DNA of 64,000 nucleotides. Origin: Octopus vulgaris (Eukaryota). Under the pieces are notes generated by a model that worked only from the letters and a program-made list of their open reading frames with translations, was not told where the DNA came from and made no database searches. Made by a program: the position numbers and the translations under genes. Positions 13,216 to 13,427 of this stretch are shown here, piece after piece (positions within the stretch are counted from its first letter, which is position 1; every line of letters begins with the position of its first letter). The stretch covers positions 45,136,001 through 45,200,000 of the forward strand of contig OX597837.1 in assembly GCA_951406725.2 (NCBI GenBank), read 5' to 3'.

Positions 13216-13422
13216 ACGGGAAGATTTACGAAAATAAACAAAAGACGAAAGCAGGTGGAGTACAAACAAACAATTGTATTAGTATGGCGCTCAGGAATAA
13301 AAATAAAACAAGTCTTTTACGTTTCGAGCCTACGCTCTTCAACAGAAAGATACACAGAAAAAAACAAGGAAAGAAACAAGGAGAGAAAAAAAATGCGTGC
13401 AGGAGCTAACGATTCAACATGG

Positions 13423-13427
<5 letters not shown>
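13216..13427 (-). mobile_element. HHR-bearing mini-element family D, copy 1, inside (TA)n
   Basis: Co-linear with 21788-21987, 25506-25691 and 61329-61490; minus strand reads TCTTT-CTGTTGA-A-GAGCGTAGGCTC-GAAA-CG-TA-AAAGA. Confidence 0.85.

Follow-up and report, generated by a model that had tools for sequence, protein, structure and literature searches.

Short (TA)n-flanked repeats of Octopus vulgaris as probable terminal repeats of a Penelope-like element, with U at position 6 of a hammerhead motif

Repeats in the window and their hammerhead motif

The window, a 64-kb stretch of the microsatellite-rich, 2.8-Gb genome of Octopus vulgaris, contains four minus-strand copies of a repeat of about 200 bp (Table 1). 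Copies 2 to 4 share 79 to 89% identity with copy 1 in a comparison within the window. A sister element, which represents a separate branch, is 90% identical over 103 nt to the stretch adjoining a 619-aa RT-GIY-YIG frame in locus L034. Copy 1 shows the features of a minimal type I hammerhead, namely, stems I and II, the G10.1-C11.1 pair, an extra nucleotide after A9, a palindrome at positions 15.1 to 16.1, and an NUH site.

Table 1. Positions of the repeats and motif parts (window numbering, except where a locus is named)
Feature	Position	Strand	Remarks
Copy 1	13216..13427	-	Probable solo 3' pseudo-LTR (pLTR) of a Penelope-like element; common 5' landmark at start, (TA)n at 3' end
(TA)n at 3' end of copy 1	13174..13215		Likely target and priming site; same junction in 50/67 position-ordered copies
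(TA)n at 5' junction of copy 1	13428..13495		
Minimal type I hammerhead motif, copy 1	13313..13350	-	Recognized from sequence
Stem I, copy 1 motif	13350-13346 with 13317-13313	-	Formed in fold
Core C3-A9, copy 1 motif	13345-13339	-	U6 at 13342, N7 at 13341
Extra A, copy 1 motif	13338	-	Between core and stem II
Stem II, copy 1 motif	13337-13326	-	Formed in fold
GAAA, copy 1 motif	13325-13322	-	
ACGU palindrome, copy 1 motif	13322-13319	-	
Predicted cut, copy 1 motif	Between 13318 and 13317	-	
Copy 2	21788..21987	-	Probable solo pLTR; core CUGUCGA, C3 at 21917; flanked by two (TA)n tracts
Copy 3	25506..25691	-	Probable solo pLTR; older N7=A subfamily; core CCGUAGA, C3 at 25627
Copy 4	61329..61495	-	N7=A subfamily; core CUGUAGA, C3 at 61455
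Sister pLTR-like element	20525..20757	-	Canonical CUGACGA core, C3 at 20655; 3-nt loop 2
CCGACGA sister copies	L097:4682-4824, L098:858-1013, L112:5845-6023, L143:4743-4919, L034:7597		

A previous sequence-only reading had described one motif in all four copies, with U at position 6, with U, C, A, and A at position 7, and with a canonical core kept by the sister element. The two core positions and the sister core are as described, and the full motif is matched by copies 1 and 2; copies 3 and 4 deviate from it. Copy 3 has an additional U4C change and a CUAG loop in place of GUAG, and copy 4 reads GAAAUGUUA, so that its ACGU palindrome is broken. The same reading had called the copies free of ORFs and of Pol III boxes, and we found no ATG ORF longer than 66 aa and no match to A-box or B-box patterns in the window copies. 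Its statement that all copies abut (TA)n needs a correction, as copy 4 has (TA)n at its 3' end only, because its 5' end is interrupted by another repeat at about 61495.

An Rfam scan of the window gave no hammerhead among the best 150 of 541 rows, which were microsatellite-driven miRNA matches, and the Rfam search that had been proposed as a check also gave no hammerhead match for copy 1 scanned alone. Monomer folding of the four copies was no better than that of shuffled sequences (z, -0.86 to +0.28). As for the covariation to which the previous reading had looked, the stems are nearly invariant, and compensatory changes in both stem I (CUCU/AGAG) and stem II (GGGC/GCCC) were seen in only one U6 copy, with a diverged motif, L034:1633 (G000:C4, near 89029632).

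The coding element that ends in the repeats

Among the best 30 genomic matches to copy 1, the 3' end is fixed in nearly all and runs into (TA)n; their 5' ends vary, with several matches reaching into a low-complexity 3' UTR and then into a GIY-YIG frame. In locus L032, a 666-aa RT-GIY-YIG frame on the same strand ends in the repeat, and locus L033 has the order repeat, truncated body, repeat. Copy 1 is 96.7% identical over 209 nt to the 3' end of RT-GIY-YIG locus L032/L035, and copy 2 is 89.6% identical to L035. We also selected loci by a protein-similarity search that is blind to the hammerhead (94 loci scored, 30 fetched), and the repeat lies 3' of the ORF in 28 of these 30, in every case with CUGUUGA. 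Another 12 loci were fetched for their longest open frames; in nine of them, a pair of matching U6 repeats spaced by about 4.5 kb flanks the ORF, a tenth carries an older repeat upstream, and the last two have the 3' repeat only. Their ORF DNA is 98.4 to 99.9% alike, which indicates that this long-frame subfamily is young.

The ORF of locus L205 codes for 1,080 aa from the Met, with DKG, YGRYIDD, and IIYCISC..YIG motifs, two internal Cys in the GIY-YIG domain, and the linker CSRPRCRTC at residue 836 (CX4CX2C), which fits the CX2-5CxxC definition. These features, read with the definitions available in PMC8557442, point to a C-terminal EN+ Penelope-like element (PLE) with a Neptune/Nematis linker, and by published definitions we can assign the element to the joint Neptune/Nematis type. 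Further traits of EN+ elements are present, as there is a single ORF with RT and C-terminal GIY-YIG, a hammerhead on the sense strand of the pLTR and, in the nine long-frame loci with two repeats, a partial tandem of pLTRs with the upstream copy variably truncated at its 5' end. Pfam matches to RVT_1 and GIY-YIG in the sister ORF and to GIY-YIG in a piece of the family ORF were weak and below the cutoff, and the 666-aa frame had no Pfam match; close homologs of the ORF carry RVT_1, some of them together with GIY-YIG.

The older subfamily appears to belong to elements of the same kind. When loci were picked by the 3' UTR of the copy-3 type, the ORF was found upstream in 8 of 30, mostly with 81 to 90% amino acid identity. 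In a position-ordered sample of exact motifs, ORF sequence lies upstream in 6 of 67 copies, so most copies are solo ends. (TA)3 begins 110 to 136 nt after the core in 50 of these 67 copies, compared with 12% of random windows in the same loci, in agreement with the (TA)n targeting that had been proposed from the window.

We consider it highly probable that the ~200-bp repeats are the 3' terminal repeats (pLTRs) of a young RT and GIY-YIG PLE that inserts into (TA)n, a judgment that covers jointly the pLTR identity, the insertion into (TA)n, and the likely slowing of dimer self-cleavage by a family-wide U6. The sequence-only reading was right in seeing a minimal hammerhead of the PLE type; the repeat terminates RT and GIY-YIG elements on the same strand. 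Its separate, ORF-less, retrozyme-like family has to be given up, as both window subfamilies appear as 3' pLTRs of such elements (28/30 and 8/30).

Two further frames were seen. L034:2817-7720 contains the 619-aa frame, about 2.9 kb that are mostly CA rich, and then a CCGACGA pLTR; the CA-rich stretch may be a 3' UTR of the sister family that is very long and resembles a microsatellite. At L033:3797-5572 (minus strand), the U6 element is adjoined by a 592-aa RT-GIY-YIG frame that is unrelated and belongs to another PLE type, with Pfam RVT_1 and GIY-YIG above the cutoff.

Position 6 of the core and self-cleavage

The canonical core CUGANGA is not the usual state of the family, as exact 26-mers carry U6 in 15,954 of 16,568 genome-wide copies and another base in 614; a reversed control 26-mer had no match genome-wide, so the motif of the four copies is far above chance. 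The non-U6 26-mers mostly have C among the 100 matches listed, as expected from decay after insertion. With a looser pattern that leaves stem II free, U6 and A6 were counted 23,101 and 7,546 times (controls, 3 and 2), and all four bases are common at position 7. Amplification with the U6 core, and U6 as the genome-wide state, are thus borne out. So is core conservation apart from position 7, since in contigs from four runs with four organism labels only position 13341 (N7) varies at a level of at least 5% within the motif. Contig depth in the four runs peaks over the motif and drops off in the flanks.

For a conservation table, we used 209 near-complete pLTRs in 22 flank clusters, leaving out 21 loci picked for non-U6. 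Weighted frequencies are 0.98 to 1.0 at C3, U4, G5, G8, A9, G12 to A15.1, and U16.1, 0.94 for U6, and 0.44/0.20/0.20/0.16 for the four bases of N7, in a table that is partly circular because many of the copies were chosen by the U6 pattern or by similarity. Repeats chosen blind to the motif also keep U6 (28/28 protein-picked and 27/28 scored in loci picked by the copy-3-type UTR). Flank identity between cluster representatives averages 72%, so the U6 motif has been held constant across diverged lineages.

In a whole-repeat tree, U6 seemed to have arisen once, from an ancestor with A6 and a tetraloop. This was not upheld by a tree of the flanks only, in which the root moved and the A6 tetraloop copies needed five changes; the polarity from A6 to U6 is taken from A6 being canonical. 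An old A6 copy at L157:527-804, with a remnant of GIY-YIG upstream, has the GUAG loop of the U6 family, so A6 and U6 both occur with this loop type.

In the published material available to us, hammerhead activity drops strongly when position 6 or the CUGA turn is changed (PMC3088659, PMC7151607, PMC9901934), a natural A6C is described there as cleaving slowly in Mg2+ and being rescued by Mn2+ (PMC3088659, PMC7151607), and minimal PLE hammerheads are reported to be weak even with A6 (PMC4209133). By analogy with these cases, the family-wide U6 likely slows dimer self-cleavage and may not abolish it. The genomic copies give cleavage no support: efficient cleavage would make them often begin at the cut, and 5' ends show no significant excess there (40 loci at the predicted cut versus 30 at a TA site that lies 16 nt upstream of it and served as control; P = 0.28).

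It is therefore conceivable, although we think it rather improbable, that the U6 motif does not cleave at all and acts as a structural signal, for RNA dimerization through the ACGU palindrome, for binding of the RT or a host protein, or as part of an internal promoter. Besides the missing excess at the cut, this would be consistent with the tens of thousands of insertions that hold an uncut motif, with the uniformly low activity of CUGA-turn mutants in the deep mutational scan as available (PMC9901934), and with a CCGACGA (U4C) subgroup, a second core variant among related pLTRs, which makes up 6 of 37 scored copies of the A6 sister family and suggests relaxed catalysis. Against a structural role stand the natural A6C, which still cuts, and better so in Mn2+ (PMC7151607, in the part available), and the positions that are conserved: G8, G12, C3-G8, A13-A14, and U16.1 stay fixed, any of the four bases can stand at N7, and G occupies H17 in only 2 of the 209 pLTRs (A, U, or C in 206), the pattern expected of catalysis. 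Judging from these sequence constraints, retained but slow chemistry would be the better reading when set against a purely structural role, and we hold it with fair but not strong confidence. In the active lineages, the motif would be kept by selection.

Solo ends, paired repeats, and related systems

The 5' ends of the copies vary, with one sharp pileup. They lie 50 to 90 nt above the core in about half of the 67 position-ordered copies, scored as raw lengths of which two may be inflated by microsatellite. One-strand (TA)n 5' junctions number 499 in the 13 positions above CCATG versus 141 in the 31 positions across the hammerhead, an excess of about eightfold per position that is a rough ratio because the anchors differ in length and subfamily cover. 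The same start base was found in 20 of 34 distinct loci among the matches listed, and window copies 1 and 2 start at this common 5' landmark (AGAUCGCCAUG); the site resembles an initiator, TCAG(A/T). The ~200-bp size results from this sharp 5' end, which lies about 80 nt above the core and, judging from DNA ends, is likely the start of the pLTR RNA. Penelope of Drosophila virilis is transcribed from a promoter inside the pLTR, according to the available text of Schostak 2008 (PMC2377424).

We can picture insertion as follows. The GIY-YIG nuclease would nick (TA)n, the RNA would pair with the nicked tract through the UA run that directly follows the pLTR, and the RT would copy the pLTR first. 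Short copies would mostly end at the RNA 5' end inside the pLTR, set by an internal promoter, and would give the ~200-bp solo pLTRs. The template could be either a full transcript primed on the internal TA linker or the transcript of a solo pLTR.

The second of these templates leads to a possible, although not favored, alternative, in which solo pLTRs spread in the manner of SINEs, with an internal promoter, a transcript into the flanking (TA)n, and copying in trans by the PLE enzyme. The clustering of 5' ends 50 to 90 nt above the core, the mostly solo state of the older N7=A group, and the position of the internal promoter of Penelope in the pLTR (PMC2377424, in the part available) would agree with it. 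However, UTR-linked members (a class enriched by our sampling) occur in each of the four largest flank clusters, so that no large solo-only lineage is seen, and the same product would result if a full transcript were primed at the short TA linker that follows its upstream pLTR. Spread of this kind is the surviving part of the retrozyme-like idea and is compatible with an origin of the repeats from the coding PLE.

The paired repeats of the coding PLE give a view of how its ends are rebuilt. The upstream repeats start 500 to 1,414 nt above the core, and in each of the nine elements the same short run of TA joins them to the 5' UTR. The two repeats of an element show no substitution in four of the nine, and a variant is carried by both repeats of an element in 28 instances and by a single repeat in 17. 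Private variants common to paired repeats suggest copying from a single unit, by a circle or by strand transfer. Two-repeat elements would then arise by copying more than one unit length, either around an RNA circle whose ends were joined at the hammerhead, in line with the circle model of Cervera and de la Pena, or by LTR-like strand transfer between repeats. Gene conversion or assembly polishing could also make paired repeats match. None of the nine upstream repeats starts at the 5' landmark, and we considered whether this would reveal a different template; it is not evidence, because the young subfamily rarely stops there anyway.

A tentative extension of the coding-PLE reading, which we judge possible but doubtful, is that U6 is a working natural core, tuned down or metal dependent like A6C and fixed across an active Penelope lineage. 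Rare dimer cleavage would close a 4.5-kb RNA circle, copying for more than one turn of this circle would restore the two pLTRs, and run-off copying to the pLTR RNA start would produce the tens of thousands of ~200-bp solo ends. If this were true, the pairing of an A6 with a U6 sister family in a single genome would provide a test of the role of PLE hammerheads.

An independent family of non-LTR retrozymes, with tandem ORF-less monomers that replicate through small circular RNA and are unrelated to the ends of a coding element, is very improbable, as the ORF-less window copies and the few short head-to-tail pairs (L004 and L176) that would fit it are outweighed by the presence of this sequence at the 3' end of intact coding elements, by 5' ends that reach stepwise into the 3' UTR and ORF, and by the absence of a tandem array around the copies examined. 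Animal non-LTR retrozymes (Li, Clavereau, Pollet 2026, 10.64898/2026.07.22.740005; Cervera and de la Pena 2020, PMC7229834) share with the octopus repeats, in the available descriptions, the type I hammerhead, short ORF-less copies, and kinship with PLE pLTRs. They are defined there as ORF-less tandem repeats with a hammerhead per unit, whereas the octopus copies lie dispersed as solo ends and are continuous with a coding element.

Close counterparts are the PLE hammerheads of Cervera and de la Pena 2014. In the available parts of that paper (PMC4209133), they likewise have a stem I that is short, one extra nucleotide separating A9 from G10.1, the G10.1-C11.1 pair, a palindrome in place of stem III, and a location in pLTRs, mostly as single copies of truncated PLEs. 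Their metazoan consensus is CUGANGAH, with A6 in all 44 aligned rows examined of the supplementary alignment and U3-A8 as the core variant named in the available text, whereas the young and intact octopus family has a fixed U6. The Neptune/Nematis EN+ PLEs described in the available sections of Craig et al. 2021 (PMC8557442) are alike in the RT followed by a C-terminal GIY-YIG, the CX2-5CxxC linker, the two Cys within the GIY-YIG core, the partial tandems that form pLTRs, and a microsatellite bias, attributed there to the linker; the octopus element differs in its long low-complexity 3' UTR and U6 core. A natural substitution of core position 6 is also seen in the A6C hammerhead of phage Bcep176 (Perreault 2011, PMC3088659; Naghdi 2020, PMC7151607, as available). 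That one is a single ribozyme with C6 and a normal stem III, and the U6 motif is of the minimal dimer type, has more than 20,000 copies, and is known from sequence alone. For the regeneration of pLTRs, no mechanism beyond tandem formation is known in the available text of Schostak 2008 (PMC2377424); here, the private variants common to paired repeats constrain the mechanism. The available portions of PMC11014351, PMC12602865, and PMC13282606 contain nothing on a U6 motif.

The element class and the motif type are therefore known, and the fixed U6 is the variant part, so that the gain is modest until cleavage is measured. Among the records listed by literature searches, there was no natural A6U hammerhead family and no description of a Penelope hammerhead in octopus; U6 cases may be contained in Lunse et al. 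2017, which reportedly covers small PLE hammerhead variants. As the hammerhead role in PLEs is called unclear in the available text of PMC8557442, a young, intact family of more than 20,000 copies with a change at a cleavage-impairing core position is a natural test of that role: U6 may work in dimers or with other metals and so widen the core consensus, or else selection is not for cleavage. A search restricted to CUGANGA would overlook three quarters of the motifs in our counts (23,101/30,647), and the private variants of paired repeats and the sharp pileup of 5' ends offer cheap genomic tests of pLTR rebuilding.

Some minor features were also seen in the window. In the N7=A subfamily, the pyrimidine tract leads into CUGUAG (25627-25621 and 61455-61449, minus strand), an arrangement that resembles the 3' splice site consensus and is not conserved in other subfamilies. 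Further CUGANGA...GAAA motifs of different sequence are located at 18486 and 47404 on the minus strand and at 46493 and 52124 on the plus strand. Last, a self-comparison revealed large palindromic (inverted-repeat) elements at 45617-46471, 59135-59504, and 13492-13883.
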